Origin: Candidatus Poribacteria bacterium
GTDB taxonomy: Bacteria > Poribacteria > WGA-4E > WGA-3G
Assembly: GCA_022394775.1 (NCBI GenBank)
Contig: JAGFCB010000030.1
Location: 18,852 to 82,851, forward strand
DNA: 64,000 bases
Direction: 5' to 3'
A program made the translations under genes and the position numbers. Positions 16,981 to 57,690 of the stretch are shown one piece after another; the first letter of the stretch is position 1, and every line of letters begins with the position of its first letter. The notes under the pieces are model-generated. The model was not told the origin of the DNA. It did not search any database and worked only from the letters and a program-made list of their open reading frames with translations.

Positions 16981-17080
16981 CAGGACTTACGCAAATTTAG
17001 CGCGCGATAGTAGATTTTTTAGTTTTAAACCCCCTAAGTCCCCCTTATCAGGGGGACTTTAAGAGGAAATGTATAAGTCC
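16981..17080. mobile_element. MITE/REP-like element, family with AGGACTTACGCA ends (copy 1, carries a nested hairpin module)
   Basis: CAGGACTTACGCA at 16981-16993 and GTATAAGTCC at 17071-17080. The interior holds the AAACCCCCTAAGTCCCCCTTATCAGGGGGACTTTAA module. Confidence 0.6.
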
Positions 17081-17131
17081 CAAGTTTAAAATCGCCAACG
17101 CTCAGCAATTGAATCTAAAGGGTACCTCGCT

Positions 17132-19072
17132 ATGAAAATAATCTTGATTTTATTTATTCTTTTAACTGTTTTTTCATTAAGCACTTTCGCTCAAGATTTT
17201 CCTTATACGAGTCTTGAAGGGCATACAAGTAGGGTCACTAAAATTGTTTTCAGCCCTGATGGGACGACGCTTGCGAGTGTGAGCGAAGATAGAACAATTC
17301 GCTTGTGGGATGTTGCTACAAGAACGCATAAATACACGCTCACAGGTCACAATTCTTATATTTATTCTGTAGCTTTTAGTCCAGACGGGTTGACACTTGC
17401 AAGTGGAAGCGAAAATGGTAGGATTCGTTTTTGGAATGTTATCACTGGGCAATACAAGGTAACACTTGAAGGACATAACAGCTCTGTCAGGAGTGTTGCG
17501 TTCAGTCCAGATGGAAACACACTCGCGAGTGGGAGTTCTGATCACACAATACGTCTATGGAATGCTACTACAGGCTTATACAAAGTAACACTTGAAGGAC
17601 ATTCTGAAACTATAAATAGTGTTGCGTTCAGTCCAGATGGTCAAACGCTCACGAGTGGAAGCTCTGATCGCACGATACGTCTGTGGAGTGCTACTACAGG
17701 TTTCCATAAGCAGACCCTCACGGGGCATACAAACAGTATTTATGATATTTCATTTATAGAGGAAGGTCAAACACTCGCGAGTAAGAGTAATGATGGCACA
17801 ATCCGTTTATGGGACACCGCCACGGGTCAACATAAAGAGGGGCTTTCAGTTAATTTGCGTGATGTTTCGATTAACTCAGATGGAACAATGCTTGCAGGTG
17901 TGTATTCAAGTCGTAATATTTCTTTGTGGGATATTGCGACTGAAAGTGAGATTACGTCCCTCACTGGTCATACGTCTGATATTTATGCTGTTACATTCAG
18001 TCCGAGTGGTAAAACATTAGCGAGTGGCGGTAGTGATCATACAGTTCGCTTGTGGGATCTCTCTACCCGCGTTAACATCATGCCGTCAACTATTGAATCT
18101 CCACCGATCGGTCAGCAATTTAAGATTGATATTAACATTGTTGGTGGGCAAGATGTTAGAGGGTATGAGGTCATTGTAGAATACGATCGCGATTCATTAA
18201 GTTATGTATCTCATGCTCACGGTGATTATTTTTCTGACAAGGTTTATAGGGGACCAATAATAAGAAAACTTGGAAGTGTGTCCTTTAGCAACGTCTCAAC
18301 TGCGGAGGCGGGCGAAGGTGATGGCACTCTTGCTACAATAACCTTCAAAGTTATTTCGCGTAAAGCGTCAACTATCAGTTTAACCGCAATCCTTTCTAAT
18401 AGTGATGGTGAAAGATTGCCTTATATAGCGATTTCGGGCAAGGTGATAGAACCTCCGTGGGATGTAAACGGTGATGGTTCTGTAGATATATTGGACTTGT
18501 CATTTGTCGCTGCGCGTTTCGGGGACGAAGGGCAAACTGAAGCGGATGTTAACAGCGATGGAGTCGTAGACATCAAAGACCTAATTACGGTTGCCAGTGG
18601 AATGGGTAGAGAAGCAGAGGCACCTTCCGGGCACCATCGCAGCAGCTTTAAGGAGTTACCATCAAGAGCGACGGTGCAACAGTGGCTCACTGAAGCGCAA
18701 CAACTAAACTTGACAGACTCAACATCACAAAGGGGTATTCTTTTCTTAGAATATCTATTAGCATCATTGACCCCAAAAGAGACTGCACTTCTAGCAAACT
18801 ATCCTAATCCGTTTAACCCAGAGACATGGATACCGTATCAGTTAGCGCAATCAGCAGATGTAACTATTTCCATTTATACAATAGACGGGACTATGATACG
18901 TACCCTTAACCTTGGACACAAACCATCTGGGGTTTATGAAAACAAAACTGTTGCTGCGTATTGGGATGGCAGAAATGAAACAGGTGAATCTGTCGCGAGT
19001 GGTGTCTATTTCTATACATTATCAACAGCAGGAAAATTCAAATCCACGCGGAAGATGCTAATCCTGAAATAA
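17132..19072 (+). CDS. secreted 7-bladed WD40 protein with cohesin-like, dockerin and T9SS/FlgD-Ig-like C-terminal domains
   Basis: Signal peptide, then seven GH...WD-type blades. A cohesin-like segment (GQQFKIDINIVGG...GDGTLATITFKV) and a dockerin pair (DVNGDGSVDILDL / DVNSDGVVDIKDL) follow. The tail is LLANYPNPFNPETWIPYQL...GVYFYTL. Confidence 0.85.
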   Translation: MKIILILFILLTVFSLSTFAQDFPYTSLEGHTSRVTKIVFSPDGTTLASVSEDRTIRLWDVATRTHKYTLTGHNSYIYSVAFSPDGLTLASGSENGRIRFWNVITGQYKVTLEGHNSSVRSVAFSPDGNTLASGSSDHTIRLWNATTGLYKVTLEGHSETINSVAFSPDGQTLTSGSSDRTIRLWSATTGFHKQTLTGHTNSIYDISFIEEGQTLASKSNDGTIRLWDTATGQHKEGLSVNLRDVSINSDGTMLAGVYSSRNISLWDIATESEITSLTGHTSDIYAVTFSPSGKTLASGGSDHTVRLWDLSTRVNIMPSTIESPPIGQQFKIDINIVGGQDVRGYEVIVEYDRDSLSYVSHAHGDYFSDKVYRGPIIRKLGSVSFSNVSTAEAGEGDGTLATITFKVISRKASTISLTAILSNSDGERLPYIAISGKVIEPPWDVNGDGSVDILDLSFVAARFGDEGQTEADVNSDGVVDIKDLITVASGMGREAEAPSGHHRSSFKELPSRATVQQWLTEAQQLNLTDSTSQRGILFLEYLLASLTPKETALLANYPNPFNPETWIPYQLAQSADVTISIYTIDGTMIRTLNLGHKPSGVYENKTVAAYWDGRNETGESVASGVYFYTLSTAGKFKSTRKMLILK

Positions 19073-19109
19073 TTGCTTCTTCTATTCTTCCTTTGGGAAC
19101 TAAGAACTT

Positions 19110-19697
19110 ATGGATATTTTACATAGCATTCGCGGTGCGTTGTTGGAAGCGCGGGATGTACTTGATCGGTTTATCCGAAATCCTGAGAATATCGCAACCA
19201 TCGCGGAGACAGCAGAGATGATGCAAGACGTATTTGAACGGCAAGGTAGGATCTTCACGTGTGGAAATGGTGGAAGTCTGTGCGACGCCGTCCATTTCGC
19301 TGAAGAATGCACCGGAAAGTTTCGGGCTGACCGGAGACCGCTACCGGCAATTGCCCTCAGCGATGCTGGCCATATCACTTGCACAGCGAACGATTTTGGA
19401 TTTGCCGAGATCTTCGCGCGTCCACTTTCAGCACTCGGACACCCTGATGATCTACTCGTAGTGCTTTCAACCAGCGGGAACTCTGAAAACGTTGTACGTG
19501 CAGCAGCGACAGCGAAATCACGTGGGATGCGGGTGTTTGGGCTGCTTGGTGGCGATGGCGGCAATCTTAAGCAACACTGCGATATATGCCTGATTGCTCC
19601 GGGCAATACAGCTGACCGCATACAGGAAATCCATATTAAAGTCTTGCACATTTTGATTGAACACGTCGAGCGGTTGATGTTTCCAGAGAATTATTGA
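19110..19697 (+). CDS. gmhA: D-sedoheptulose-7-phosphate isomerase (SIS domain)
   Basis: CGNGGSLCDAVHFAEE, LSTSGNSENV and IQEIHIKVLHIL match the GmhA pattern; 195 aa. Confidence 0.8.
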   Translation: MDILHSIRGALLEARDVLDRFIRNPENIATIAETAEMMQDVFERQGRIFTCGNGGSLCDAVHFAEECTGKFRADRRPLPAIALSDAGHITCTANDFGFAEIFARPLSALGHPDDLLVVLSTSGNSENVVRAAATAKSRGMRVFGLLGGDGGNLKQHCDICLIAPGNTADRIQEIHIKVLHILIEHVERLMFPENY

Positions 19698-19784
19698 CAG
19701 TGGCATCGTTTTTTGATACCGTTTAACGTAGATTTCTGAACGCCATTCTTAAAGTTTATATATAATAAATCTGGAGGATCATTC

Positions 19785-20066
19785 ATGGAAACATCAGAAA
19801 AGAATAAAGCGTATTGGCGGAAGAATCTGCAATACCTCGCTATTTTATTAGCGATTTGGTTTGTTACATCGTATCTCTGCTCAATTGTGTTTGTGGAACA
19901 ACTCGACAAGATTCAATTCTGGGGATACCGACTCGGTTTCTATTTCGCGCAACAGGCATCTATCTGGATTTTTGTTGAACTCATCTTTGTCTATGCGTGG
20001 CTGATGAACCGTTTGGAAAAGAAATACGCACAACCCGAAGATGAAGAGGGGGCAGAACAATCATGA
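19785..20066 (+). CDS. DUF4212 small membrane subunit of a sodium/solute symporter
   Basis: 93 aa with two TM segments, YWRKNL...GFYFAQQ. It overlaps the downstream symporter start by 4 nt, which is the canonical pairing. Confidence 0.75.
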
Positions 20067-20659
20067 GCGTACAAGCATGGACATTTGTGATGGTAGCACT
20101 CTCCTTCGCGTTGTATATCGGTGTCGCGCTCTGGTCGAAGGCACGGTCCACAGGGGAGTTCTATGTTGCAGGGAGCAACGTACATCCGGTCGTCAATGGT
20201 ATGGCGACAGCAGCAGACTGGATGAGTGCCGCCTCTTTCATCTCAATGGCAGGTCTTATTTCGTTTATGGGGCGTGACGGTTCCGTTTACCTGCTCGGAT
20301 GGACAGGTGGCTACGTGCTGCTGGCGTTGTTATTGGCACCCTATCTCCGCAAATTCGGGAAGTATACTGTCCCTGATTTCGTAGGCGATCGGTATTACTC
20401 GCAACTGGCTCGGATTGTCGCCGTGGTGTGTGCAATTTTTGTCTCATTTACTTACGTGGCGGGACAGATGCGGGGTGTTGGGATTGTCTTTTCCCGGTTT
20501 CTGAGTGTCAATGTTGAAACGGGTGTACTCATCGGTATGGGAATTGTGTTTTTTTATGCGGTGCTTGGTGGCATGAAAGGCATTACGTACACGCAGGTTG
20601 CCCAATACTGTGTGCTGATTTTTGCGTTTCTCGTGCCTGCTATTTTATCTCTATCCTGA
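20063..20659 (+). CDS. sodium/solute symporter (SSF, VC_2705/ActP-like), N-terminal part of an interrupted gene
   Basis: Polytopic SSF N-terminus. The frame ends at 20659, and the protein continues in the -1 frame from about 20645. Confidence 0.75.
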
Positions 20660-20688
20660 TTACAGGCAACGCTATCCCACAACTCGGA

Positions 20689-21759
20689 TTGATGGGAAAA
20701 GTGGCAGATGGCTCAGGGCTATATCTTCTGGATCGACTTAACGGCTTGAGCGAGGAACTCGGATTTAACTTATATACGGATGGAAGTAAAAGCACTATCG
20801 ATGTCTTTTTCATCACCGCGGCATTGATGTTAGGAACAGCAGGACTTCCACATGTGATTATCCGATTCTATACCGTGCGAAAAGTCTCTGAGGCACGGAT
20901 TTCAGCAGGATGGGCACTCTTGTTCATCGCGATTCTCTATACAACTGCACCGGCAGTGGCTGTGTTTGCCCGGACGAATCTTCTCAAAACCGTTAGATAT
21001 GAACAAAATGGTGAGTTAACAGATGTCAGATATGAGGATGTGCCGGAGTGGTTTAAAAATTGGGAGGCAACAGGGCTGATTGAATTTGACGATTTGAATA
21101 GCGATGGGAAGATACAGTACCGAGGACCGAAATCAGAGATACAAAATGAACTCGAAATTGATCCAGACATCATGGTATTAGCGAACCCTGAGATTGCGAA
21201 ACTCCCGAATTGGGTTGTCGGATTAGTGGCTGCTGGCGGATTGGCTGCTGCGTTGTCAACAGCTGCAGGTTTGCTATTGGTAATTTCCACGGCGGTCGCG
21301 CATGACTTGCTCAAAGGTAGCATCGCACCGGGATTGTCAGAGAAACAGGAGTTAGCTGCTGCGCGCATTGCAGCCGGTGTAGCCGTCTGTATCGCGGGGT
21401 ATTTCGGCATTAACCCACCCGGGTTTGTGGGGCAAGTCGTTGCATTTGCCTTCGGGCTTGCGGCAAGTTCCTTTTTCCCGGCGATTGTTATGGGCATCTT
21501 CTCCAAACGGATGAACAAAGCAGGGGCAGTCAGCGGTATGATTGTCGGTATCACCTTTACTGCGGCATATATTATCTACTTCAAATTTATTAGTCCGGAA
21601 CTTAATACATCAGAACACTGGTTATGGGGCATTTCACCTGAAGGGATCGGAACGCTCGGCATGGTGCTAAACTTTATTGTCTCGATCAGTGTGTCAGCCT
21701 TGACCGCACCGCCACCTGATGAGGTGAAGGCACTCGTTGAGGACATCCGGGTTCCATAA
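20689..21759 (+). CDS. sodium/solute symporter, C-terminal part of an interrupted gene
   Basis: Continuation of the SSF transporter (GLPHVIIRFYT motif). Its frame is open back to about 20645 ([14 protein letters not shown]). Confidence 0.75.
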   Translation: MMGKVADGSGLYLLDRLNGLSEELGFNLYTDGSKSTIDVFFITAALMLGTAGLPHVIIRFYTVRKVSEARISAGWALLFIAILYTTAPAVAVFARTNLLKTVRYEQNGELTDVRYEDVPEWFKNWEATGLIEFDDLNSDGKIQYRGPKSEIQNELEIDPDIMVLANPEIAKLPNWVVGLVAAGGLAAALSTAAGLLLVISTAVAHDLLKGSIAPGLSEKQELAAARIAAGVAVCIAGYFGINPPGFVGQVVAFAFGLAASSFFPAIVMGIFSKRMNKAGAVSGMIVGITFTAAYIIYFKFISPELNTSEHWLWGISPEGIGTLGMVLNFIVSISVSALTAPPPDEVKALVEDIRVP

Positions 21760-21801
21760 AAAACATTCGGCGTACTTTGGAGGCACACATAGAGGTATCT
21801 C

Positions 21802-23457
21802 ATGAGACACAAGTTGAAAACAACCATTTTTGTTCTTTCGCTTATTAGTATTGCTTTTGCAGCGAATGCCGCAAAGGTTGAAGACTTCATGCCAAAGGAG
21901 AGTGTTCTGTATGTGCAACTTCAGCATATAGACGAGGTCTACAATGAAATTGAGACTTCCGAAACTTGGCAGAAAGCACTTGCCTTGTTGCCAAGTGAGT
22001 CAGAGGGCATTCGACACGGGATCAGGATGGCAGAGGCTTTTCTGAGTACAGATCTGCTAAGCGTCCTTGGAACAATTGGGTATCAGACAGCATTAGCCGT
22101 TTGGTTAGACGAAACACGCGCTGTACAAGTTGGATTCGTTGCCCATTCGGGTGGGAATCTCAGCGAACTCCAACGGTTCACCAAAATTGCTGAGGGTGCT
22201 ATAGGCTTGAGTGGCACAACGACCTTACGCTTGGATGCGGGTGTGTACCAGCGGGTTCGCTACAATGTGCTGGAAATGGATCAGAATATTGCTAAGTATG
22301 GATTTGCCGGTGAGTTTCTCGTGCTTGGTGTAGGCGAAGGGGCTTTCGAGAAATTGATGGATACCTACGGGAAAGCCGCGCCATCTATCCGGGATAACGA
22401 GGTATTTGGCGGGATGCGAAAGAAAATGGGCTCAGGAGAAGCGGTCATATTTGCTGACATGGAACACGCGCTCTCCTTGGTAGAGATAGGCGATTTAGAT
22501 GAGTGGAGACGGACACGGTTTCCTATCTTTCAATCTGTATGCATCCGGCTTAATTTGATGGAACCCGGTCCTCTCTATCAAATGGCTGTGCGATTCAACC
22601 GTAATGCCCCAGATTTTTCAGAAAACGAGATCAGTTTGTTTCTGGAGAAAGGTAAGAAACTCGAAATTTTAAACGCGTTGTCCGGTGAAGAGGATATATT
22701 TGTTGCCGTAACCCCGAATGTCATGAAAGGCATCTGGGAAATCGTTCGTTCCGAGATGGAGAAAAATCTGACAGATACCCTCATCGAAGGCATCTCTTAT
22801 GTGGAGGGGCTTTTGAACCTTGATCTGGAAGATGATGTGATGACCGCGTTAACTGGAGAGCTTGCTTTGTCGGTCGCTGACTTATCTCAATTTGATCCAA
22901 CAGCCTTTGAGGCTCTCGAGATTAACGCTGATAATTCGTTTACAATAGATGCTGCTGCCGTAGAAACACACGGCGGTTTAATCTTCAAGCCTCAGAATCT
23001 TCTGAAATGGAATCAATTCACGAATAGTCTCTCTAACCTACAAAATATTTCCGTTTCTCAAACGGTTTATAATACAGCAACGCTGTCGGAGTTCGCGACA
23101 AATATCTATTATAGTGAGGTGGACGGTCGGTTTCTTTTGAGTTTTTCAGAAGAGCAGATGCACGCACTCGTAGATGGAGTAAAAGAGAAAAAGCGCCCCG
23201 CTTATTTGAAGCAAGTACCGGAAAACCCGATAGTATTTGCACACCTAAATTTAGCACGAGTTTTAGAAGCAACAGGGGAAGGAACACCGCCTGCTGACAA
23301 AGTCCTTGTCAGTTCCGAAGAAACAACACCATTGCTGGCATGGATTTCGGTAGAAGATAGTGAGGTATTGCTTGAAGTCGTACTATCAATAGAAGATACA
23401 CCACTTGAAGTCATCGCGAAACTTGTTCCGTTCTACGTTTGGTCTATGGAAAATTAG
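21802..23457 (+). CDS. secreted hypothetical protein, possibly DUF3352-like
   Basis: Signal peptide; FMPKESVLYVQL near the N-terminus and DLEDDVMTALTGELALSV resemble DUF3352 landmarks as I recall them. Confidence 0.6.
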   Translation: MRHKLKTTIFVLSLISIAFAANAAKVEDFMPKESVLYVQLQHIDEVYNEIETSETWQKALALLPSESEGIRHGIRMAEAFLSTDLLSVLGTIGYQTALAVWLDETRAVQVGFVAHSGGNLSELQRFTKIAEGAIGLSGTTTLRLDAGVYQRVRYNVLEMDQNIAKYGFAGEFLVLGVGEGAFEKLMDTYGKAAPSIRDNEVFGGMRKKMGSGEAVIFADMEHALSLVEIGDLDEWRRTRFPIFQSVCIRLNLMEPGPLYQMAVRFNRNAPDFSENEISLFLEKGKKLEILNALSGEEDIFVAVTPNVMKGIWEIVRSEMEKNLTDTLIEGISYVEGLLNLDLEDDVMTALTGELALSVADLSQFDPTAFEALEINADNSFTIDAAAVETHGGLIFKPQNLLKWNQFTNSLSNLQNISVSQTVYNTATLSEFATNIYYSEVDGRFLLSFSEEQMHALVDGVKEKKRPAYLKQVPENPIVFAHLNLARVLEATGEGTPPADKVLVSSEETTPLLAWISVEDSEVLLEVVLSIEDTPLEVIAKLVPFYVWSMEN

Positions 23458-23498
23458 TAGACTTTAGCCTTATAGTTCAACTAATTAAGGGGGTAACG

Positions 23499-26759: not shown

Positions 26760-26782
26760 GTCTCTTTTTATGGAGAGTTTCA

Positions 26783-27568: not shown

Positions 27569-27606
27569 TCTATACTTATGGTTCTATATTGTGACGGGGG
27601 TTGATT

Positions 27607-29351: not shown

Positions 29352-29357
29352 AAAACA

Positions 29358-33022: not shown

Positions 33023-33125
33023 AGGAATAGCTTTCAGCGATCAGTAAAGAACGGCGTTTTGTTTGGGTATTTCCGCAAGCGTATCAAAAACCTCTTCTGC
33101 CTGATTGCTAACTGCTGACGAAAAA

Positions 33126-34910
33126 ATGGCAAAAAAACGAGTTGTGGCGATAGATATCGGCACGCATACAGCGAAAATGGTTCAGTTTGAACAGTCATCC
33201 GGGACTTTGCGTCTCACCAATGCGGGAGTCGTTACATACACAGACAAGGATGATAAGCAACAGGTGACTGAATCGATAAGACACCTTTGGGCATCCTTAG
33301 GCAGTCCGGCACAGAAAGGAAATCTGCTTTCGCTATTCGATAGGAGTGACCTTGAGGTTGTGCTGGCGCTGCCGAGATCTCTGGTAAGCACAAAACGTTT
33401 AGCCAACTTACCAACCGCAGCCGATGATCAACTCGCGAATATCGTTGCAATTGCGGCGGAATCGGAACTCCCATTTCAAATTGAAGAAGCAATTTTTACC
33501 TACCATGATGTGAGACGAACGCCGGATGCCACTTCGGTAGAGTTGATATCCACCCGACATGCGTCCGTCGCAAGTTATCTGGATTTTCTTGAACAGATCG
33601 GTGTGTCCGCATCTGCGGTCACGCCTTCAATGATCGCTATTGCCGGAACAGCGGCAAATAGCGGATGTACCCAGCCTACATTTGTTGTTGACATTGGTGC
33701 CTCACAAACCGATTTTTGTTTCATTGAGGGTGGTGCCCTGCGTTTTTCTCGGAGTTTCCGTTTGGGTGGTGACAAGCTCACTGAACATATCAGCGAAGAA
33801 TTGAATGTTAATAGTGAAACGGCAGAAGAAGAAAAACGACATATTCCGGCGGATGAAGCACCTACATCTGCGTGGACAGCTCAATTGGTTGGCGAGTTAC
33901 GGCGTTCTATTGCTGCTGCGACTGCACATCGGGCATCGGATGGTTTTGATGCTGCGGAAGAAACCGATGGTGTTGAAAGTGCCAGGTTGTCCGAAACCGA
34001 GACGGAGCTCTGGTTGTGTGGTGGTGGGGCACGTGTTCCTGAGCTTGCAGCTGTTTTAGAAGAAGGACTTGACATTCCGACATCCTTTTGGAATCCGCTT
34101 CGTGCTATCGAGCAACAGCCAAATATTAAAATTGATCCTCAAGACGCAGAGATCAAAACCATACTTGAGGAGTGGGGAGATACCCTTGCGGTTCCATTAG
34201 GCGTAGGATTTAGTACTTTAGATTCGACGCTCCAACCTTCCTTGTTGCCACAAGAGGCTGCCGCGACGTTGACGCAAACGACACGGCAACGCCAAATTTT
34301 TGCTACAGCGGGGTTGGGTGTTTTGATTGTTGGTGGTATCCTCTTTGGTAGTTATACGCTTCAACGTTCACAAAAGCATAGAACAGAAATGGTTGATGCA
34401 CGCCTTGCGAGTTATGCGCAACCCGTGGCAGCCGCGCAAGCACAGCTTGGGCGTGAATTGGCACTCACAGAGATGTTAGCGCATAATGTGTCCCCGCTTG
34501 ATATTTTGCATGCTCTTAGTGAAATGTTTAGCGATAGAACGCAAGTCGCTTGGACCAATTTCAATATTATCAACCTTCATGAACCTCAGACGGCAAGAAT
34601 TACTTTTAATTTGGAAGGTGCGTCCCATAACGCTATAAATACACTTTTGCGCGCGCTTGACCGATCTGGAGTCTTTACAAATGTTCGGCCCGGTGAGGTT
34701 ACGACAATTTCTCAAAATAGAAAACAGATCTTCCAAGTACAGGTGCGGTGTAACTTAACAGCGTCCGCGGTTCGGGCATTCGCTAAGAAACGCTATCCGA
34801 TGCCTCAGCCTCAGATTGATAAAACGGCAGAGGTGGCAGAATTACAAATTGCGTCGCCTTCGTCTAACACCCTTGAATTTGAAAATAAAAAACCCGAGAA
34901 AGAGGAATAA
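33126..34910 (+). CDS. PilM-like actin-fold ATPase domain fused to a TM plus PilN-like domain (functional GspL equivalent)
   Basis: VVAIDIGTHTAKMV and VVDIGASQTDF phosphate motifs, LCGGGA, then a TM helix IFATAGLGVLIVGGILF and a periplasmic domain. I prefer the ATG at 33126 to the TTG at 33105. Confidence 0.7.
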   Translation: MAKKRVVAIDIGTHTAKMVQFEQSSGTLRLTNAGVVTYTDKDDKQQVTESIRHLWASLGSPAQKGNLLSLFDRSDLEVVLALPRSLVSTKRLANLPTAADDQLANIVAIAAESELPFQIEEAIFTYHDVRRTPDATSVELISTRHASVASYLDFLEQIGVSASAVTPSMIAIAGTAANSGCTQPTFVVDIGASQTDFCFIEGGALRFSRSFRLGGDKLTEHISEELNVNSETAEEEKRHIPADEAPTSAWTAQLVGELRRSIAAATAHRASDGFDAAEETDGVESARLSETETELWLCGGGARVPELAAVLEEGLDIPTSFWNPLRAIEQQPNIKIDPQDAEIKTILEEWGDTLAVPLGVGFSTLDSTLQPSLLPQEAAATLTQTTRQRQIFATAGLGVLIVGGILFGSYTLQRSQKHRTEMVDARLASYAQPVAAAQAQLGRELALTEMLAHNVSPLDILHALSEMFSDRTQVAWTNFNIINLHEPQTARITFNLEGASHNAINTLLRALDRSGVFTNVRPGEVTTISQNRKQIFQVQVRCNLTASAVRAFAKKRYPMPQPQIDKTAEVAELQIASPSSNTLEFENKKPEKEE

Positions 34911-34912
34911 AA

Positions 34913-34998
34913 CAGGACTTACGCAGCCCCCACTGCAGGCGGGGTTTCAAACCCCGCCTGCGTAAGATGTCCGTTATCATAGAAAAATGCGTAAGTCG
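34913..34998. mobile_element. MITE/REP-like element, AGGACTTACGCA family (copy 2) inside the T2SS operon
   Basis: CAGGACTTACGCA ... TGCGTAAGTCG ends. The internal perfect hairpin is GCAGGCGGGGTTT-CA-AACCCCGCCTGC. It begins 3 nt after the stop codon of the preceding gene. Confidence 0.7.
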
Positions 34999-35110
34999 AA
35001 TAAAATATAAGTTTCGGTCAGTACGGTTTTCAACCGTCTGCTCGTAAAGATAGGCTTCAGATGTTTTAACGCTTTAGCCTACACAGATAGGATTTATAGA
35101 GGTTGGCTTT

Positions 35111-46375: not shown

Positions 46376-46819
46376 ATGTTCAAGTATATAAGAAAAATCC
46401 TAAAAAAGATACGGCAGCGGTATATAAGGAATTTGCAGGGACGGAATTTACCGAAGGCTGCCCCAAGCGTGTCGGAAGCGATTCTTCCGTTGGACGCGGA
46501 CACGTACACGATTACGCCGAACCAACTCAAAGAGATGATGGACGAAGATAAGTCGTTTGTTTTACTGGATGTGCGAGAGAAATGGGAGTATGAAATGGTT
46601 CACCTTGAAGGCGCGATATTGATCCCTTTGGGTGAGCTGCCGAAACGGTTTAGAGAAGTTACGCCAGCGGTTGAGATTATCGTGTATTGCCACTGGGGGA
46701 TGCGAAGTCTTGACGCGGCATTTCTTTTACAACAACTCGGTTTTAAATCGGTGAAGAGTTTAGTTGGTGGTATTGATCGGTGGGCGCAGGAAATTGATAC
46801 AGGGATCCTTCGGTATTAG
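46376..46819 (+). CDS. rhodanese-domain sulfurtransferase
   Basis: FVLLDVREKWEYEMVHLEGAILIP, active-site loop YCHWGMRS, and GGIDRW. Confidence 0.85.
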   Translation: MFKYIRKILKKIRQRYIRNLQGRNLPKAAPSVSEAILPLDADTYTITPNQLKEMMDEDKSFVLLDVREKWEYEMVHLEGAILIPLGELPKRFREVTPAVEIIVYCHWGMRSLDAAFLLQQLGFKSVKSLVGGIDRWAQEIDTGILRY

Positions 46820-46827
46820 TTCAGAGC

Positions 46828-46890
46828 AGTAATTTGTGTTCTTTAAACCCCCTAAATCCCCCTTATCAGGGGGACTTTAATGAGAAATAT
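46828..46890. repeat. GC-hairpin repeat module (copy 2 of the AAACCCCCTAA-TCCCCCTTATCAGGGGGACTTTAA element)
   Basis: Near-identical to 17008-17072, with the core hairpin TCCCCC-TTATCA-GGGGGA. Confidence 0.8.
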
Positions 46891-46896
46891 TTCCGG

Positions 46897-48288: not shown

Positions 48289-48325
48289 CGTCTCGGTTCT
48301 CCTTATTTTCCAAAAGTTTATAGAA

Positions 48326-48390
48326 CAGGACTTACGCAGTTTTCCATGATAACGGACGTATGACACCCTGCAGAGGGCTGCGTAAGTCCT
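48326..48390. mobile_element. MITE/REP-like element, AGGACTTACGCA family (copy 3) between the kinase and regulator genes
   Basis: CAGGACTTACGCA at 48326-48338 and TGCGTAAGTCCT at 48379-48390 form perfect 12-bp inverted ends. The interior is the reverse complement of part of copy 2. Confidence 0.75.
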
Positions 48391-50080
48391 ATAGAAGTTT
48401 ATCGTCATTCAGTGGAAAGCTGATTTTAAAAGCGGTTCCCATTCCCATTTGACTTCTGACTTCAATCTTGCCTTTATGCGCCGTAATGATCTGGTGTGAA
48501 ACTGCAAGCCCGAGTCCTATGCCCCCGGTAGCATCTTTCGTCGTAAAATACGCGTCGTAAATCTGTTCCTGAATTTCTTCAGGGATGCCGATGCCGGTGT
48601 CTCTAACTTCGATGACTGCCTGCTCTGTTTTTCGATCGACTTCCTCAAGTAAGGTAGTAATGTAGATGCTGCCGCCCTTGGGCATAGCTTGGATGCTGTT
48701 TTGCACAAAGTTGAAAAGGGTCTGTCGTACTAAGGCTGCATCTAATGGAACATCCGGCAGATTTTCATCATAATTTTTGATGACCTGTACCTTAGCTTCT
48801 TCAGTAATGAGAGCGAATTCCACTAATACCTGATCTACAAGGACCTTAAGGTTTACGGGTTCTCTATTTAATTTTCTGGGTCGATTTAGCGTGAGGAACT
48901 CTTCTGAAATTTCTTTCAATTCCTCTATTTTGTTGTCAACGATTTCTAAAAGTTCTTTTGCCTCTTCAATATCATCGGAACTCACCTTTGGTTGTGAGAA
49001 TACAGACTTTAGGTATTGAGCAGTCATCCCGATGGAGTTAAGAGGGTTCCGAATTTCGTGTGCGATCCCCGCGGCGAATTGTCCTAAGGCGTCAATCCGT
49101 TTTGAGTGAGCATCTCGCAATTGCCAGAGCATCCGGACGAGATTATGGGTCGCCTTTCCGATTTCATCCGAAGAGTAATCCTGCTCAAGGGATAGATTGT
49201 CGGTTTCCGCGCTCTGAATAATACGCGTCATGCGTTCTAACGGTCTCATAATCAAGTGATTTGTCGTCAGATCAATCAGAATTACGAGGAGTGCCCCAAC
49301 AATCACGATAAGTATCGCGTGCATAAGCAAAGCGGATCGGATTGATTTGTCAATATCTGGCACATTAAAAAGCACTTGAATATATCCGACCTGTGTTTTT
49401 TGGATCGATAACGTATCATTCTCCTTCCATAAGGTATAGAGATTCACGCGTTCCTTATCCGTGATCCACCATCGCTGTCCTTTTTCTTGGACTGTTACGA
49501 TGGCATCCATGACATAGATATTTTGTGCGACAAGGATTTTCCAGAGCGGAAAAGGAATACTACCATTGTTCAAAGTGGTTTCGTAATCAACATCAGGCGG
49601 TTCTATTTGTTTAGGTGTTGCCAAGGAAACAAGATATTTAATAACAATAGCAGTTGCATTCTGCCCTTCTACTGTGTCTACAGTTGCCCCTTTCGTCTCA
49701 ATTTGTGCCAGATCTGATGCATCGAGATTAATGTTAGCAGTATCTTCTCGGGACAACAAGCTGGAGCGAATACGCGTATCATCCAAGGAAACATGAATAT
49801 CTAACACATCTTGCATATCAGGGCGCTCTCGCTTGAGTTCATCAAGTACCCTATCGAGCTGAGCGGCATCAAATACTTTTGACGTTTCGAGTTCAGTCAC
49901 AACAGCACGGAGTATGGTGTTTTCAGCCATTTTTTTTAGTTCAGCCCCTCGCTCAGCCCCCAAAGCGTGGAGGGCATTCATCTCGCGCCGTACTCGGAGA
50001 CTATCAAAAAAGTAAAACGCCACGAGGATTGCTATGACAGAAAGGTTGATAACAAGGGAATACTTCCATTGGAGTCGCAT
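48389..50080 (-). CDS. sensor histidine kinase (TM, extracytoplasmic domain, HAMP, HisKA, HATPase)
   Basis: H-box AHEIRNPLNSI, N-box FNFVQNSIQA, and G-boxes RDTGIGI and GGIGLGLAVS. Confidence 0.9.
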   Translation of the reverse strand: MRLQWKYSLVINLSVIAILVAFYFFDSLRVRREMNALHALGAERGAELKKMAENTILRAVVTELETSKVFDAAQLDRVLDELKRERPDMQDVLDIHVSLDDTRIRSSLLSREDTANINLDASDLAQIETKGATVDTVEGQNATAIVIKYLVSLATPKQIEPPDVDYETTLNNGSIPFPLWKILVAQNIYVMDAIVTVQEKGQRWWITDKERVNLYTLWKENDTLSIQKTQVGYIQVLFNVPDIDKSIRSALLMHAILIVIVGALLVILIDLTTNHLIMRPLERMTRIIQSAETDNLSLEQDYSSDEIGKATHNLVRMLWQLRDAHSKRIDALGQFAAGIAHEIRNPLNSIGMTAQYLKSVFSQPKVSSDDIEEAKELLEIVDNKIEELKEISEEFLTLNRPRKLNREPVNLKVLVDQVLVEFALITEEAKVQVIKNYDENLPDVPLDAALVRQTLFNFVQNSIQAMPKGGSIYITTLLEEVDRKTEQAVIEVRDTGIGIPEEIQEQIYDAYFTTKDATGGIGLGLAVSHQIITAHKGKIEVRSQMGMGTAFKISFPLNDDKLL

Positions 50081-50081
50081 T

Positions 50082-51623: not shown

Positions 51624-51738
51624 ACTGTGGATATGACTCCTATTCGTTTTATTTAAGGATAACATGGATTAAAAAAAAATATCAATTGAAAATCAGGGCT
51701 TGGCTAACGAAAAGATTTGAAATTGTTATCAATTCAGG

Positions 51739-51768
51739 TTGACATCAGATGCATCAGGCTGCTATAAT
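51739..51768 (+). promoter_or_regulatory. sigma70-type promoter (TTGACA-18-TATAAT)
   Basis: TTGACA at 51739-51744 and TATAAT at 51763-51768, upstream of the S55-like peptidase gene. Confidence 0.6.
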
Positions 51769-52027
51769 ATCCTATTATGTCTTGACAGTATTGAACAATG
51801 CTAATTACATAGAGTCGTTTCCGTTTTCCTTGCGTATACTAACAAATTTGCCACCTTTTAATTGGAAGAATTAAGGCTCGTAGATCACAGTTATTGAGCG
51901 AAATTTGAGATTTGAAAAAAGGCTACAGGTAAAAAACTGGATGGCTCTATATCTCAATCAATGTACAATTGAGATTATTATAGCGAACATAAAACAGGTT
52001 TCTGATAGTTCAGAGAGGAGTGACGTT

Positions 52028-53914
52028 GTGAAAAAGGTTTGGCTTTGCGCGTTGATAGTGTTTTGCTTGGCTACATATCACAGCCATGCGCAAATTAAGT
52101 GGGACGCTGAGAAGTTTATGCCGTTGTCCGATGTGGAACCGGGTATGACGGGAAAAGGCTACACAGTATTTTCAGGAATAACGGTGGAACCCTTTGATTT
52201 TGAAGTTGTGAGTATTGAATACAACTATTACCCAGGCTGGCATGTGGTATGGTGTGAAGGCCTCAGCGACAACTTTAAACGTACCGGTCCTGCAGGTGGT
52301 ATGAGTGGTAGCCCGATATATATTGATGGACGGCTTATGGGTGCCCTCTCGCTTGGGTTTATTAATCAGCGTGCCCATTCCAATCTTTTTGGTGTTACAC
52401 CGATTGAATTGATGGTTAAAGTGGCACAACGTGGGATGGAACCCAATTTAGCCTACCAAGGTACCCAACTCTTTAACCTTGGCACTGCAGCTGCATCGCA
52501 GGAATCTGGTTTGGATATGGGACCGTCCCTACTTCGGGATGGTAAAGTTGCAGAGATCCCTCGCAATTTTGATCAAGTATGGTTTAACAGCATTTCCGAT
52601 TCACCCTCCCGCACGAGACCTGCCCAGTTGTCTATACCTATGGCGCACCCGCCGCTGAGTCCTGAACTTATGAAGTTTGTCAAGCCGGTTTTTGACAAAT
52701 ACAATTATACACCGGTTCAGGCTGCAGGTGGAGGCGGTCGGATTAAAAAATCACCCGTTGAGGAGGGACAAATCATCGGGACGGAAGCCGTACGTGGTGA
52801 CATTTCGCTTTTTGGGTATGGGACGATTACTTATGTCGATGGGAATGAGTTAGTTGCTTATGGACATCCTGCTGGTGCAGCGGAAGGCCACGTCAATTTG
52901 CCCCTTTCTGGTGGCTATGTCCATTTTATTTATCCGAGCCGATCCCGTTCGTCCAAAATCGCGGCACCGACACAACCGATCGGCACCTTAGTCCAAAACC
53001 GAGAGCCTGCAATCGCGGGTCTTATTGGAAAGCACCCCAGTTATATTCCAGTCAATCTCAGTGTCCAAACGACTAATGGGAAACAGCACGCAAGGTCCTA
53101 TGAGGTGATAAGGGACCGTGGAATATCGGGTATCTATGTGGGAATAGGAACCTCCCTCATCCTTGACGCGCTTGAGTTCTATTTCCACGACCACACGGTC
53201 AATATGAACGCGACTGTCACCTTGAAAGAACATCCGGATCTAAAAACCCAAGAATTGACGTATAAAAACGTTTTTTCCTCCGGCGGTTCACCAGCGTTTG
53301 GTATTATGCAAACGTTAGCTCTCCCCATGTCGATGTTGGATAATAATCCTTACACAAGGGTCCAGGTCGAGGGCGTTGCGCTTGACATAAAAGTTGAAGA
53401 TAAACGGCGCACAGCGAGGGTTCAAAGCCTACAAGTAGATAAACTCCGCTATCGCCCGGGTGATACTGTTGCTGTAGAAGTAACTTTGCAGCCCTACCTC
53501 GAAGCACCGATAGTCCAGACGGCAACGATTACAATTCCGAACGATGCCCCAGATGGACTTGTTATGCTCCTCGCTTCCAACGGAGGTTTTTACGAATCCT
53601 GGCAGCGTTCCCGCGCGCCTTTCAATTTTCGATACAAAGACATCAACCAGTTAGTAGAACTTTTGAAACGCGGGGAAAACAATTCCGACATTATTCTTGC
53701 GCTGTCTGTGCCCCAACCGGGTCTCACCGTTCAGGGTCAAGAATTCTCGAATTTGCCACCCTCAGTCATGTCTGTAATGAATACCGCCAAACAGGTGGTC
53801 GGTAATACGGGATACACTTCAGGGACAGCCTTACACGTTGACAAGATGTCCACAGATTATGTTGTCTCCGGTAGTGGGATTATTCGTTTTGTTATTGATA
53901 GGAATGCCGAGTAG
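52028..53914 (+). CDS. secreted SpoIVB-type (S55-like) serine peptidase domain protein
   Basis: GGMSGSPIYIDGRLMGALS resembles the S55 catalytic-serine segment. The GTG at 52028 follows GAGGAG and yields the signal peptide VKKVWLCALIVFCLATYHSHA. Confidence 0.65.
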   Translation: MKKVWLCALIVFCLATYHSHAQIKWDAEKFMPLSDVEPGMTGKGYTVFSGITVEPFDFEVVSIEYNYYPGWHVVWCEGLSDNFKRTGPAGGMSGSPIYIDGRLMGALSLGFINQRAHSNLFGVTPIELMVKVAQRGMEPNLAYQGTQLFNLGTAAASQESGLDMGPSLLRDGKVAEIPRNFDQVWFNSISDSPSRTRPAQLSIPMAHPPLSPELMKFVKPVFDKYNYTPVQAAGGGGRIKKSPVEEGQIIGTEAVRGDISLFGYGTITYVDGNELVAYGHPAGAAEGHVNLPLSGGYVHFIYPSRSRSSKIAAPTQPIGTLVQNREPAIAGLIGKHPSYIPVNLSVQTTNGKQHARSYEVIRDRGISGIYVGIGTSLILDALEFYFHDHTVNMNATVTLKEHPDLKTQELTYKNVFSSGGSPAFGIMQTLALPMSMLDNNPYTRVQVEGVALDIKVEDKRRTARVQSLQVDKLRYRPGDTVAVEVTLQPYLEAPIVQTATITIPNDAPDGLVMLLASNGGFYESWQRSRAPFNFRYKDINQLVELLKRGENNSDIILALSVPQPGLTVQGQEFSNLPPSVMSVMNTAKQVVGNTGYTSGTALHVDKMSTDYVVSGSGIIRFVIDRNAE

Positions 53915-54065
53915 CAAATAAACCGCTCCTTACAATAACCGGATGGGATAGCGTCCGTAGATCCAATCCTGTATTTCGGTGAATGCTAAATCAAAATTCA
54001 TAAATTTGGCGACTTGCACGTAATTTTAAGTTCCGCCTAAACAACCCTATAGGAGGGTATTTTCA

Positions 54066-56207
54066 ATGCGCCGTGTCATCTCCTTTTGGAGTTTAATTTT
54101 AACCATCCTTATTTTCGCGGGTGTCGCATCTGCAGTAAAAACTTCATTGTGGGAGCAGCAGCATCATGCGGATTTCGAGTCTGGTAAGCCTAAAAACCTT
54201 TCACTGACAAGCACTGGAGACGTTATGTTGTCTCTAAAAATTGATGACTTCACGAAAATGAAGGAGACGCAAGTCTGGGCGCTTGCTGAGGATTCAGCAG
54301 GCAACCTCTATGCTGGTACCGGCAACGAAGGTAAAATCTACAAAATTAGTGCTGGTGCCGATACTGCTGAGCTTTACTATAATTCACCTGAAGTCACGAT
54401 TTACAGTCTTGCGATCGGCCCCGACGATGCCCTCTACGCAGGTACAGGCCCTGACGGATTGATTTACAAAATCACAGATGCGACGACACCGCCTACGACG
54501 CTTCTCAATGAAGGCGACAAATATGTCTGGGCATTGCAATTCGACGATGCCGGCAATCTGTATGCGGCAACTGGCACTGATGGAAAAATTTACAAGATCA
54601 CACCTGAGGGTGAATCAAGTGTTCTTTTTGATGCCGAAGAAAAAAATATTATGACTCTCCTTCTGCACGAAAATAATTTCTATGCGGGAAGCGGTGACAA
54701 CGGTATTATCTACCATATTATGGACGACGGCACTGCAAAGGTTATTTATCAAGCGAAAGAAAAAGAAATCCGTGCCCTTGAAATGGATAGTGAAGGTAAT
54801 CTGTACACTGCAGCTGTTACATCTCAACCCGCCGAACCTTCAAGAGGTCGGCGCGGTGCGAGCAACGGACCGCCTACACCGAGTGGTCCTCCGCCTCCCG
54901 GTGGTGGCCCGCCTCAAGAAAATAAATCCAATATCTACAAAATTCGACCAGATGGAACGGCTGTGTCAATTTGGAATTCGCCGGAACCTCTTATTTTAGC
55001 AATCGTTCTGGAAAGCGAATCCCAAATTCTTGTGGGTACCGGAAATGAAGGAAAAATCTATCAGGTGAATCCGATGACTGGCGACTCTACTGCCATTGGA
55101 AAATGCTCAGCCGATCAGGTCGTCGCGATACATCAACAAGAGGTAGATGGGAAAACCAAAACCCTCTTGGCAACCGGAAATCCGGGTAAACTCTTTACGC
55201 TTACAACCGACTACGTGGAAGATGGAACGCTTGAATCGAAGGTTCACGATGCAAAAAGTCTGTCCCGCTGGGGCAAACTTTCTTGGGAAGGTGAGATGGA
55301 AGAAGGCACCGCGATCGCTTTCTCAACGCGGACCGGTAATACTAAAAAGCCTGATGACACTTGGAATGACTGGTCGGAAGAACTTACGACCGCAGAAGGT
55401 TCCCAAGTGCCGAATGGAGAGGCACAGTATATCCAGTGGCGTGCTAAGTTCACGACCAGCGATGCAGCAAAAACACCTGTCCTGAAAAAGGTTACGCTCG
55501 CTTCTGTGCAGGCTAATGTTGAGCCTCGTTTTACGAGTATTAATGTAGATGATGGAAGTAGCAGTGGCAATCAAGAAACGCGGCGTCGTTCTGGCGGGAA
55601 TTTACCCCCTCCAGGTGCGCGCGGCGGAAGTGGCGGTGGATCCAGTAGTGGAAACGACGCGCCCTCTAAAACATGGAAGGTTAGTTGGAAGGTTGAGGAC
55701 GCGAATGACGATACACTTCAGTACACACTCTACTATAAAGCGATTTCTGAAGAAAATTGGCGGCTGCTAAAAAAAGAGCTAACCAAAGCCGAATTTGAGT
55801 GGGATATCACTACTGTCGCAGATGGGCGATATCAGGTGAAAGTTGTCGCTACTGACAAACTAAGCAATCCAGTCGGTTGGGCAAAATCTGCGGATAAGAT
55901 GAGTATGCCGTTCGATGTAGATAATACGCAACCTGCTGTCGGCGACATTCAAGTCACACCTAATGGTAATGGCACTTACAAAATCGCTTGTGAAGTTACG
56001 GATATGGCTACGCCTATCCAGAAAGCCGTCTATAAAATTGACAACGATGAGAACTGGAAGGCTATCTTCCCCGATGACGGTATCTTCGATTCCAAAAACG
56101 AGCAACTCTTATTAGAAACCGATGAGTTGCCCGAAGGTGCACACTCTATTACTATTCGAGTAACAGATAGGGCACAGAATACGGCAACCGGTGGCGTAGG
56201 TTTCTAA
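54066..56207 (+). CDS. secreted repeat protein (putative beta-propeller) with Pro/Gly-rich linkers and C-terminal Ig/FN3-like modules
   Basis: Signal peptide and six or more repeats of the form G-N-L-Y-A-G-T-G-x-x-G-K-I-Y-K-I. Low-complexity segments PPTPSGPPPPGGGPP and GGSGGGSSSGN are present. Confidence 0.7.
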   Translation: MRRVISFWSLILTILIFAGVASAVKTSLWEQQHHADFESGKPKNLSLTSTGDVMLSLKIDDFTKMKETQVWALAEDSAGNLYAGTGNEGKIYKISAGADTAELYYNSPEVTIYSLAIGPDDALYAGTGPDGLIYKITDATTPPTTLLNEGDKYVWALQFDDAGNLYAATGTDGKIYKITPEGESSVLFDAEEKNIMTLLLHENNFYAGSGDNGIIYHIMDDGTAKVIYQAKEKEIRALEMDSEGNLYTAAVTSQPAEPSRGRRGASNGPPTPSGPPPPGGGPPQENKSNIYKIRPDGTAVSIWNSPEPLILAIVLESESQILVGTGNEGKIYQVNPMTGDSTAIGKCSADQVVAIHQQEVDGKTKTLLATGNPGKLFTLTTDYVEDGTLESKVHDAKSLSRWGKLSWEGEMEEGTAIAFSTRTGNTKKPDDTWNDWSEELTTAEGSQVPNGEAQYIQWRAKFTTSDAAKTPVLKKVTLASVQANVEPRFTSINVDDGSSSGNQETRRRSGGNLPPPGARGGSGGGSSSGNDAPSKTWKVSWKVEDANDDTLQYTLYYKAISEENWRLLKKELTKAEFEWDITTVADGRYQVKVVATDKLSNPVGWAKSADKMSMPFDVDNTQPAVGDIQVTPNGNGTYKIACEVTDMATPIQKAVYKIDNDENWKAIFPDDGIFDSKNEQLLLETDELPEGAHSITIRVTDRAQNTATGGVGF

Positions 56208-56225
56208 ATCAGTATAGTCAATTAG

Positions 56226-56257
56226 AGGGCGGGTTCAAAAACCCGCCCTATTTTTTT
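56226..56257. terminator. bidirectional rho-independent terminator between convergent genes
   Basis: AGGGCGGGTT-CAAA-AACCCGCCCT followed by an A and then a T7 run. It overlaps the bioA stop codon. Confidence 0.75.
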
Positions 56258-57612
56258 GTGACTGTCTCAATTGATGTATAAACGATGTCTAATAGGGTGT
56301 CTAACTCTGAAATCGTGATTTGCAAGGGTGGCATCAGCACAATAGTATTCACAAGGGGTCGGAGTATTGCTCCATGTGCGAGTGCCTCTTTACAGACCCG
56401 GATACCCACCTTTTCTTCAAACGGATAGGGTGTGTTTGTGTCTGGGTTTTTCATGAGTTCCACGCCAGCGGCGAAACCACACACCCGCACATCGCCAACG
56501 TGCGGCAGGGCATAAAAATCCTGAAGCCGATTCCTGAAATGATCAATAGTAGGTTGAAGTCGAGATAGGAGGTTCTCACGCTCGAAGATAGCGATATTTT
56601 CTAATGCGACAGCGCATGCTAACGGATTTCCTGTAAATGTATGACCGTGGAAGAAAGTTTTGAGGTCTCTGTATTCACCGAGGAAGGCGTTGTAAATGTC
56701 GTCAGTCGTTAACGTTGCTGCAAGTGGGAGATAGCCGGCTGCGAGTCCCTTTGCCGTGCATAAAATATCGGGTGTAACGTCCTCGTGCTCACATGCCCAC
56801 ATTTTGCCGGTGCGTCCAAATCCAGTCATAACTTCATCGGCGATGAGAAGCGTATCCCACTGTTTTGCGAGCGTGCTAAGCTCCTTGAGAAACCCCTTTG
56901 GTGCAACAAGCATCCCGCCTGCGCCTTGGATTAAGGGTTCTAAAATAATACCAGCAATCTGTCCAGCATTTTCGGAGAGTGCGGCTTCTACGGCGTTAAG
57001 CCAATGGATTATCGTTGAAGCGTTGTTTCCAGATGTGTCAGTATGATGCGAGGAATGATAAGTTTCAGTTGTAGATACACGCACGCCCTTGAAAAGGAGG
57101 GAGCCGAAGGTGGTGTGAAAACTATCGATACCGCCGACACTCATAGCCCCTATCGTGTCTCCGTGGTATGCCTTATCGAAATGAACAAATAGTTTTCGTT
57201 GCGATTCGTCTTTGTGTTGCCAGTACTGATACGCCATCTTCAAGGCGATTTCGACAGCGGTTGAACCGTTATCGGAGTAAAACACCTTGTTAAGTCCGGC
57301 TGGCGTAATTTCTACCAATTTTTGTGCAAGTTGAATCGCAGGAATGTTGCTGTAGCCAAGGAGCGTAGTGTGTGCGATTTTATCCAGCTGCGTCTTAAGC
57401 GCTGTGTTCAGTTGCGGGTGATTGTGTCCGTGGACATTCGTCCACATAGAGGCGGTTCCGTCAAGGTACCGATTTCCGTCGGTAGCAATGAGGTAGCATC
57501 CCTCCCCGCGTTCAATAATGACAGGATCTTCCGCCAACCAATCCTGCATTTGCGTGAATGGATGCCAGAGGTAGCGCTTATCCCAAGCGACAAGCGTCTC
57601 TTTATCCAACAT
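56248..57612 (-). CDS. bioA: adenosylmethionine-8-amino-7-oxononanoate aminotransferase
   Basis: WHPFTQMQDW, DGTASMWTNVHGHNHP, ADEVMTGFGRTG, and the PLP lysine in CTAKGLAAGYLPL. Confidence 0.85.
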   Translation of the reverse strand: MLDKETLVAWDKRYLWHPFTQMQDWLAEDPVIIERGEGCYLIATDGNRYLDGTASMWTNVHGHNHPQLNTALKTQLDKIAHTTLLGYSNIPAIQLAQKLVEITPAGLNKVFYSDNGSTAVEIALKMAYQYWQHKDESQRKLFVHFDKAYHGDTIGAMSVGGIDSFHTTFGSLLFKGVRVSTTETYHSSHHTDTSGNNASTIIHWLNAVEAALSENAGQIAGIILEPLIQGAGGMLVAPKGFLKELSTLAKQWDTLLIADEVMTGFGRTGKMWACEHEDVTPDILCTAKGLAAGYLPLAATLTTDDIYNAFLGEYRDLKTFFHGHTFTGNPLACAVALENIAIFERENLLSRLQPTIDHFRNRLQDFYALPHVGDVRVCGFAAGVELMKNPDTNTPYPFEEKVGIRVCKEALAHGAILRPLVNTIVLMPPLQITISELDTLLDIVYTSIETVTKK

Positions 57613-57632
57613 GAGACTTACCCGCTATTATT

Positions 57633-57690
57633 CAGGACCTACGCACGCACCGCAGGCGGGGTTTCAAACCCCGCCTGTAGTATAAGTCCT
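57633..57690. mobile_element. MITE/REP-like element, AGGACTTACGCA family (copy 4, slightly degenerate)
   Basis: CAGGACCTACGCA ... GTATAAGTCCT ends and the same internal hairpin GCAGGCGGGGTTTCAAACCCCGCCTG as copy 2. Confidence 0.7.

Follow-up and report, generated by a model that had tools for sequence, protein, structure and literature searches.

We describe a family of short inverted-repeat elements in the genome of a sponge symbiont, Candidatus Poribacteria bacterium (assembly GCA_022394775.1), starting from a 64,000-nucleotide stretch of contig JAGFCB010000030.1 (positions 18,852 to 82,851 of the forward strand), which is called the window here. Four copies lie in the window (Table 1). In all of them two 13-bp terminal inverted repeats (YAGGACTTACGCA ... 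TGCGTAAGTCCTR) flank a short non-coding interior, and a perfect 5-bp direct repeat is found immediately outside each end. A preliminary description of the window had listed these four copies, and re-reading of the sequence finds each of them at its place. The boundaries given there can be sharpened by shifting them by one base per side; the 5-bp duplications had not been noted. As argued below, these repeats are most probably MITEs (transposable elements of the miniature inverted-repeat type), and this name is used from here on.

Table 1. Repeat elements in the window, with positions counted from its first base
Feature	Position	Class	Duplication	Sequence and further coordinate
MITE copy 1	16981-17082	family 3, reverse orientation	AGTTT at 16976-16980 and 17083-17087
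MITE copy 2	34913-35000	full-length family 1, 88 bp	TAAAA at 34908-34912 and 35001-35005
MITE copy 3	48326-48391	family 1, reverse orientation, 66 bp	TAGAA at 48321-48325 and 48392-48396
MITE copy 4	57633-57691	family 1, 59 bp	TTATT at 57628-57632 and 57692-57696
Decayed family-3-like relic	~46812-46895 (boundaries approximate)	no recognisable terminal repeats		GCAGTAATTT...AAACCCCCTAAATCCCCCTTATCAGGGGGACTTTAATGAG; C90:65698

The four copies differ in how well their ends and interiors are preserved. The left end of copy 1 is CAGGACTTACGCA, its right end is degenerate (TGTATAAGTCCCA, 3 mismatches), and its interior is the hairpin module AAGTCCCCCTTATCAGGGGGACTT, which matches family 3 reversed when interiors are clustered genome-wide. 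The right end of copy 2 (clustered as e36_C90_53765_53850) has 2 mismatches, and its duplication includes the TAA stop codon of the upstream plus-strand gene at 33105-34910. Copy 3 has perfect 12-bp inverted ends, as had been stated before, and its central family-1 hairpin is deleted. At 48389-48396, it landed exactly where the final sense codon of a minus-strand kinase-like gene meets the TAA stop. The stop codon of this gene is now the terminal TAG of copy 3, and the protein end (...LL*) is the same as in the closest relative found (labelled G044). Both ends of copy 4 are degenerate (AGGACCTACGCA and TAGTATAAGTCCT), and the GTCCGTTATCATGGAAAAA module is missing.

Copies 2 and 4 share the hairpin GCAGGCGGGGTTTCAAACCCCGCCTG, and copies 2 and 3 share the segment GTCCGTTATCAT(A/G)GAAAA in opposite orientation. 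Both observations of the preliminary description thus hold. Its view of the interiors as mosaic holds only in part. Copies 2 to 4 belong to a single family, family 1: copy 2 is a full member, copy 3 is inverted and lacks the hairpin, and copy 4 lacks the GTCCGTTATCAT module. They look mosaic and oppositely oriented because of their orientation and of internal deletions of family 1. The interior modules are nevertheless truly separate repeat families.

The window belongs to a metagenome-assembled genome (MAG) of 5.9 Mb in 331 contigs, with 47% G+C and 94% completeness (labelled G000). When up to 2 mismatches are allowed, the window contains the terminus AGGACTTACGCA 10 times, where 3.7 occurrences are expected; none of 100 shuffles reaches 10. 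The exact 12-mer is found 286 times in the genome, compared with once for a control with the letters reversed. When each plus-strand terminus is paired with the next minus-strand terminus (no more than 500 bp away, with no more than 2 mismatches overall), the result is a set of at least 187 paired elements. They are 43-372 bp long and together cover 21.5 kb, or 0.36% of the assembly. Another 159 termini are unpaired, mostly with a more decayed partner end; copies 1 and 4 of the window are such cases. The true copy number is therefore nearer 300, and the total can be put at roughly 190-300 copies, or about 0.4% of the DNA.

Of the 187 pairs, 104 have a flanking duplication of exactly 5 bp, 11 have one of 6 bp, and 4 have one of 4 bp. 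When left and right flanks are shuffled among the elements, exact 5-mers are matched on average only 1.4 times (maximum 6). Reconstructed empty sites show an AT-rich and roughly symmetric target, with A or T in 95, 92, 89, and 90% of the sites at positions -2, T1, T5, and +2, respectively.

Prokaryotic MITEs typically measure some 50-500 bp; the lengths of the elements found here have modes near 90, 111, 120, and 134 bp. Clustering of the interiors gives families of 77, 19, 14, 9, 7, and fewer members, which lie at unrelated loci and on different contigs. In family 1 (77 members), the core of 86-92 bp consists of one end, GCCCC, the hairpin GCAGGCGGGGTTTSAAACCCCGCCTGC, a variable stretch, GTCCGTTATCATGGAAAAA, and the other end. 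There are also versions of 110-113 and 132-135 bp, in which the hairpin is longer by about 22 or 45 bases. The 19 members of family 2 are 119-121 bp long. In family 3, the 14 members measure 83-101 bp and are organised around AAAGTCCCCCTGATAAGGGGGATTTAGGGGG, and several related families have a further nested block.

Evidence of movement comes from the relative G044, whose orthologous region was aligned to the whole window, with flanks 88-97% identical. Copy 3 is absent there, and the empty site has a single TAGAA between flanks that are 96-97% identical. Copy 4 is absent as well; its empty site has a single TTATT, with flanks about 92-96% identical. Conversely, G044 has two family-1 insertions at sites that are empty here: one of 112 bp with the duplication TTGAG at window position ~51972, and one of 90 bp with the duplication TTTTA at ~60290. 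Filled and empty sites are thus found in both directions; therefore, the family transposed after the two species split. The copy 2 site is filled in both genomes, with the duplication TAAAA in both, but the element in G044 has the opposite orientation and different internal modules. This suggests that the site is an insertion hot spot, that the element was inverted between its ends, or that it was replaced. Copy 1 lies within a 3.2-kb segment (15931-19110) that is missing from G044, which has 63 bp there. The same segment also holds a gene for a 646-aa WD40-like protein (17132-19072).

The spacer that carries copy 3 differs among other relatives as well. In the spacer orthologous to window positions 48300-48400, a family-3 half-element is found in G005, and an unrelated insert of about 155 bp in G019 and G008 (loci L019, L025, and L029). 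This spacer is a repeated landing site.

Insertion sequences with the same ends exist in related genomes. In G040, inverted termini lie 1089 bp apart (locus L001) with one open reading frame (ORF) of 338 aa between them. The encoded protein, designated P0001, reaches 392.7 bits (cut-off 250) with the NCBIfam model NF049921, "IS701 family transposase", and matches the Pfam domains DDE_Tnp_1 and DDE_5. Homologues that are 48-100% identical to it are found in 25 of the 41 genomes searched (that of the window and 40 relatives). In the homologue loci that were fetched, the same 12-mer is found inverted on both sides, 1076-1100 bp apart; there are ten such loci besides L001, or 11 in relatives altogether. 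G019, a member of the same genus, has 41 copies. The 20 copies that were read differ by 0-1 base; nine of them have a 5-bp duplication and six a 6-bp duplication, which is the same length spectrum as in the MITEs.

The distribution of the transposase is patchy. G019, G046, G024, and G029 have many intact copies, and the transposase is undetectable in G000, G044, G043, G018, G023, G004, and G016, several of which are assemblies of 1-3 contigs. The termini number 11-156 per strand in these genomes, G043 not counted. Since genomes without the transposase still hold termini, orphaned MITE populations are common in this genus.

The closest known system is ISPlag1 of Planktothrix agardhii CYA126/8 (Christiansen et al. 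2008, PMC2464740). ISPlag1 has the terminal inverted repeat CAGGACTTACGCAAGCACGCTATATATAG, which starts with the same 13-mer (CAGGACTTACGCA) as the poribacterial elements, and the insertion sequence of G040 shares 17 nt of its end with it (AGGACTTACGCAAGCAC). Both ISPlag1 and the poribacterial insertion sequences have a single transposase ORF of 337-338 aa; that of ISPlag1 encodes a 337-aa IS701-like enzyme with the motif CAIRWKIEEFHREIK (PMC2464740). The C-terminal motif of P0001, CNWRWKIEPFHREAK, is nearly identical to it (C-x2-RWKIE-x-FHRE-x-K). P0001 aligns over 99% of its length with products of Planktothrix plasmid genes annotated as "IS701-like element ISPlag1 family transposase", at 56.6% identity. 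There are also differences. ISPlag1 is reported to be 1306 bp long with inverted repeats of 29-48 bp (PMC2464740), while the poribacterial insertion sequences are 1076-1100 bp long, and conservation at their ends extends over only about 13 bp. ISPlag1 also leaves 197-bp remnants (PMC2464740), whereas the window elements are amplified MITE families with unrelated interiors, in a host of another phylum.

The same ends occur more widely. An insertion sequence on an Acinetobacter baumannii plasmid, with a transposase 49% identical to P0001, has the same TAGGACTTACGCA ends. No recognisable AGGACTTACGCA ends were found near the gene of a Nodularia plasmid homologue (62% identical). ISAba11, an IS701-related element of A. 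baumannii, has a 6-bp duplication according to PMC7519801. This insertion sequence is likewise small, its inverted repeats measure 13 bp, and its transposase belongs to the same broad superfamily but is only 27% identical to P0001 (E 1e-21). A duplication of 5 bp is said to have been given for ISAba11 by Rieck and co-workers in 2012. Because of this low identity, and because the AGGACTTACGCA ends are on the other A. baumannii insertion sequence, the label ISAba11-type is less apt than ISPlag1-type. P0001 has C-x2-R-x3-E-x6-K (CNWRWKIEPFHREAK) where IS4-type enzymes have Y-(2)-R-(3)-E-(6)-K.

MITEs of a similar kind have been described in Cyanobacteria. Nezha and other cyanobacterial MITEs (Zhou et al. 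2008; reviewed in PMC3184786) are likewise small and have terminal inverted repeats and direct repeats. They also share their ends with an insertion sequence that is missing from the host, and filled and empty sites are found between related species; the comparison with Nezha concerns these features. Prokaryotic genomes (one per species) were scanned for two exact ends 60-90 bp apart. Among the matches listed, MITE-sized elements with the same ends are mainly found in Cyanobacteria (Nostoc, Okeania, Trichodesmium, and others), and also in Candidatus Poribacteria, Undibacterium and other Burkholderiales, Gammaproteobacteria, Chloroflexota, Acidobacteriota, and others. Interiors were compared for 83 same-ended elements listed from other organisms; they match families of G000 only in Poribacteria, and those of the cyanobacterial elements are unrelated to the poribacterial ones. 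MITEs with these ends therefore arose many times. Transfer of whole MITEs between phyla was considered as well and rejected, since among these 83 elements interiors are in common only within Poribacteria. A full-text literature search found no paper combining Poribacteria and miniature inverted-repeat elements.

Taken at about 90% probability, the repeats are MITEs with exact ISPlag1 (IS701-like) ends that are mobilised in trans by the DDE transposase of this group, and they are ordinary selfish DNA. The 13-bp ends would be the binding and cleavage sites of the transposase, which would be supplied in trans by the 1.09-kb insertion sequences with identical ends. A MITE would be cut out or copied, and then integrated by staggered cuts 5 bp (occasionally 6 bp) apart at an AT-rich, roughly symmetric target, W-N-[W-N-N-N-W]-N-W, so that integration would leave the 5-bp duplication. 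By analogy with IS4/IS701-type DDE enzymes, we infer that this transposase moves the MITEs by cut-and-paste chemistry. The MITE population may have been seeded while the insertion sequence was present in the genome or visiting it. Since no cognate transposase is detectable, the MITEs of G000 are probably an orphaned and slowly decaying population. They would sit in spacers because selection removes insertions into genes, and not because of a demonstrated host function. This is a known kind of element, whose insertion-sequence group has already been named, and the Poribacteria family adds a member to it. Its elements are unusually abundant and are built from nested smaller repeats.

The preliminary description had proposed a dispersed, MITE-like, non-autonomous family, and the ends, the duplications, the copy number, the empty sites, and the same-ended transposase elements in congeneric genomes bear this out. 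It had suggested counting copies and boundaries genome-wide, looking for target-site duplications, and comparing orthologous loci; hundreds of copies with consistent boundaries, the 5-bp duplications far above chance, and the clean empty sites of copies 3 and 4 with the reciprocal insertions are the answers. The full-length element that it proposed to look for, with either a transposase or a REP-associated tyrosine transposase (RAYT; REP, repetitive extragenic palindrome), is found in relatives, and its enzyme is a DDE transposase of the ISPlag1/IS701-like group and not a RAYT.

Several observations weigh against mobilisation by an ISPlag1-type enzyme or at least limit it. No transposase of the ISPlag1 group, nor a remnant of one, is found in G000: a protein search gave 0 matches, and the best match in a tblastn search with 12 transposase variants has E 0.09. 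Mobilisation in this lineage is therefore not tied to a resident enzyme. A perfect duplication is missing in 67 of the 187 pairs; decay, recombination between copies, or mispairing of neighbouring elements could account for these. The 52 core copies of family 1 (86-92 bp) have a median pairwise identity of only about 80% (maximum 95.6%), and given this identity family 1 is old. The family had been called active or recently active, which is borne out only in part. The insertions do postdate the split from a relative whose flanks are 90-97% identical, but members of the family are only about 80% identical to one another, and no transposase was found in G000. In addition, the classic IS701 family has a 4-bp duplication, a length of 1400-1550 bp, and the end consensus ---YACT-Y--YR (De Palmenaer et al. 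2008, PMC2266710), whereas the elements discussed here have a 5-6-bp duplication and insertion sequences of 1076-1100 bp, and share only ACT of this consensus. The ISPlag1-type group is a distinct subgroup and not classic IS701.

Other searches for an insertion sequence in G000 gave similar results. Long inverted terminus pairs are chance pairs only, without duplications, and the ORFs beside the 159 unpaired termini are all ordinary host genes. Comparison of the genome with itself by BLAST shows no high-identity repeats of insertion-sequence size, and the contig ends that fall within elements lie within MITEs and not within insertion sequences. Copies of the insertion sequence may have been lost from this fragmented and incomplete MAG. 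Two short remnants of insertion-sequence ends are found in G000 (C309:116664-116773 and C145:24239-24300), and the left arm of family 2 has 24 nt in common with the end of an L011-type insertion sequence. Beyond the ends, the MITE interiors show no similarity to the insertion-sequence body.

Three other explanations were weighed. Hairpins in spacers bring to mind conserved, non-mobile signals that are kept by selection, for example terminators, regulator sites, or hairpins that stabilise mRNA. The copies have good folding scores (z -3.6 to -6.6), many of them (31 of 135 ends) lie within 10 nt of a gene 3' end, and in the family-1 hairpin one pair of the stem shows covariation (A-U in 32 copies, U-A in 17, A-A or U-U in none). 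Kept signals, however, would not explain the filled and empty sites, with one 5-mer duplicated, that are found in both directions between close relatives. The numbers of elements in tandem, divergent, and convergent spacers (109, 41, and 13) follow spacer length (65, 22, and 13%), both orientations occur, no T-run follows the hairpins, and a terminator scan gives only the background level. There is thus no sign of a host role in spacer distribution, orientation, or T-runs, and the many copies at gene 3' ends fit a target that is rich in A and T, with insertions into genes being selected against. The specific case of intrinsic terminators was rejected, since there is no T-run and no excess of convergent spacers beyond spacer length. 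Selected signals as a general explanation are very unlikely, although individual copies may have been secondarily co-opted. A slightly smaller chance is left for the view that each copy is a deletion remnant formed in place from a full-length insertion sequence, as the remnants of ISPlag1 in Planktothrix (PMC2464740), the shared left arm of family 2, and the two short remnants in G000 would suggest. Independent deletions would not yield uniform interiors and lengths, whereas at unrelated loci 52 copies of 86-92 bp and 19 of 119-121 bp have a common interior that is unlike the insertion-sequence body beyond the ends.

The least probable of the three is the spread of REP-type palindromes (similar to bacterial interspersed mosaic elements) by a RAYT, and the label REP-like in the preliminary description does not fit the whole element. 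It is true that the interiors contain strong GC-rich hairpins, that hairpin modules are also found alone and in tandem arrays, and that G000 has five Y1-transposase genes, two of them RAYT-like. But 13-bp terminal inverted repeats with 5-bp duplications are not products of Y1 transposition, and in relatives the same ends flank a DDE transposase gene. REP elements are palindromes of 20-40 bp that cluster at a Y1 transposase gene and have no target duplication. On contigs C58 and C226, the hairpin on either side of the RAYT-like genes is of another, GTAG type (CCCCGTAGGGGC). Within 700 bp of these genes, no searched module is found, and this holds for the AGGACTTACGCA ends too; the exception is ins22-like matches near the C58 gene. 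A REP/RAYT origin may hold for the hairpins nested in the interiors, while the whole element is not explained by it. As a separate observation, the two RAYT-like Y1 genes (C58:3341-3685 and C226:5033-5332) with their CCCCGTAGGGGC... hairpins form a REP system of their own in this genome. The other three Y1 genes resemble IS200/IS605 TnpA, and a candidate TnpB-type ORF follows the one on C78.

The interior modules of the MITEs are repeat families of their own, seen in the window at 46812-46895 and genome-wide (e.g., at C154:6600-7550 of G000). Four were followed through the genome: hp1 (GCAGGCGGGGTTTCAAACCCCGCCTGC), hp3 (AAAGTCCCCCTGATAAGGGGGATTTAGGGGG), a 22-nt module (GGGTTTTTGCTTGGGTATTTCT), and a unit of about 36 nt (GAATCAACGGTATGAATGCCTTATGGGCATTC). 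The 22-nt module has 133 copies, 83 of which are more than 200 bp from any terminus. The corresponding numbers are 103 and 45 for hp3, 91 and 20 for hp1, and 46 and 17 for the GAATGCCTTATGGGCATTC unit. Modules are found within the hairpins of several unrelated repeats and in tandem arrays. The relic in Table 1 is common to G044, which has an additional 88-nt block in the hp3 hairpin (at about window position 46857) that is absent here. No terminal repeats or duplications were seen for the interior modules. Tentatively, they may be a second tier of ultra-small mobile elements, lacking terminal repeats and duplications and preferring the hairpins of other repeats, but we consider this rather doubtful; their spread could in part be due to decay of the ends of MITEs or to recombination among copies. 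Elhai and co-workers reportedly described, in 2008, small dispersed repeats of Cyanobacteria that are very short hairpin modules, occurring alone or nested in repeats, without obvious terminal repeats or duplications. The likeness concerns the interior modules only and not the whole elements, and the sequences are unrelated.

Two more repeats were seen along the way. In G000, some hp3 modules (C124:~7250 and several of the far copies) are flanked by a different form of the end, TTAGGACAGACGCA or TAGGAAACCGACGCA, with AACGTGAGTTTGATAAATACT before it. These hp3 elements may be a sister MITE family with diverged ends. At window positions 4052-4232, 179 bp are missing from G044, including a direct duplication of about 30 bp (TTTGACGCTTCTTCRAGAAAATATT). 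Also in this stretch, one copy of the "CCGAACCGCAAGGAA" repeat, which belongs to a polymorphic family, runs up to a start codon.

The result mainly annotates an abundant class of repeats in Poribacteria, with hundreds of copies making up about 0.4% of the genome. It accounts for many contig breaks and spacer hairpins in poribacterial MAGs, and such hairpins should not be taken for terminators or regulatory sites. The insertion polymorphisms can be used as markers of strain and species history. Near-complete genomes that are rich in MITEs yet lack the transposase show that such orphaned populations are common. Finally, transposases with as little as 48% identity are flanked by one conserved 13-bp end, which is found from Cyanobacteria to Acinetobacter.

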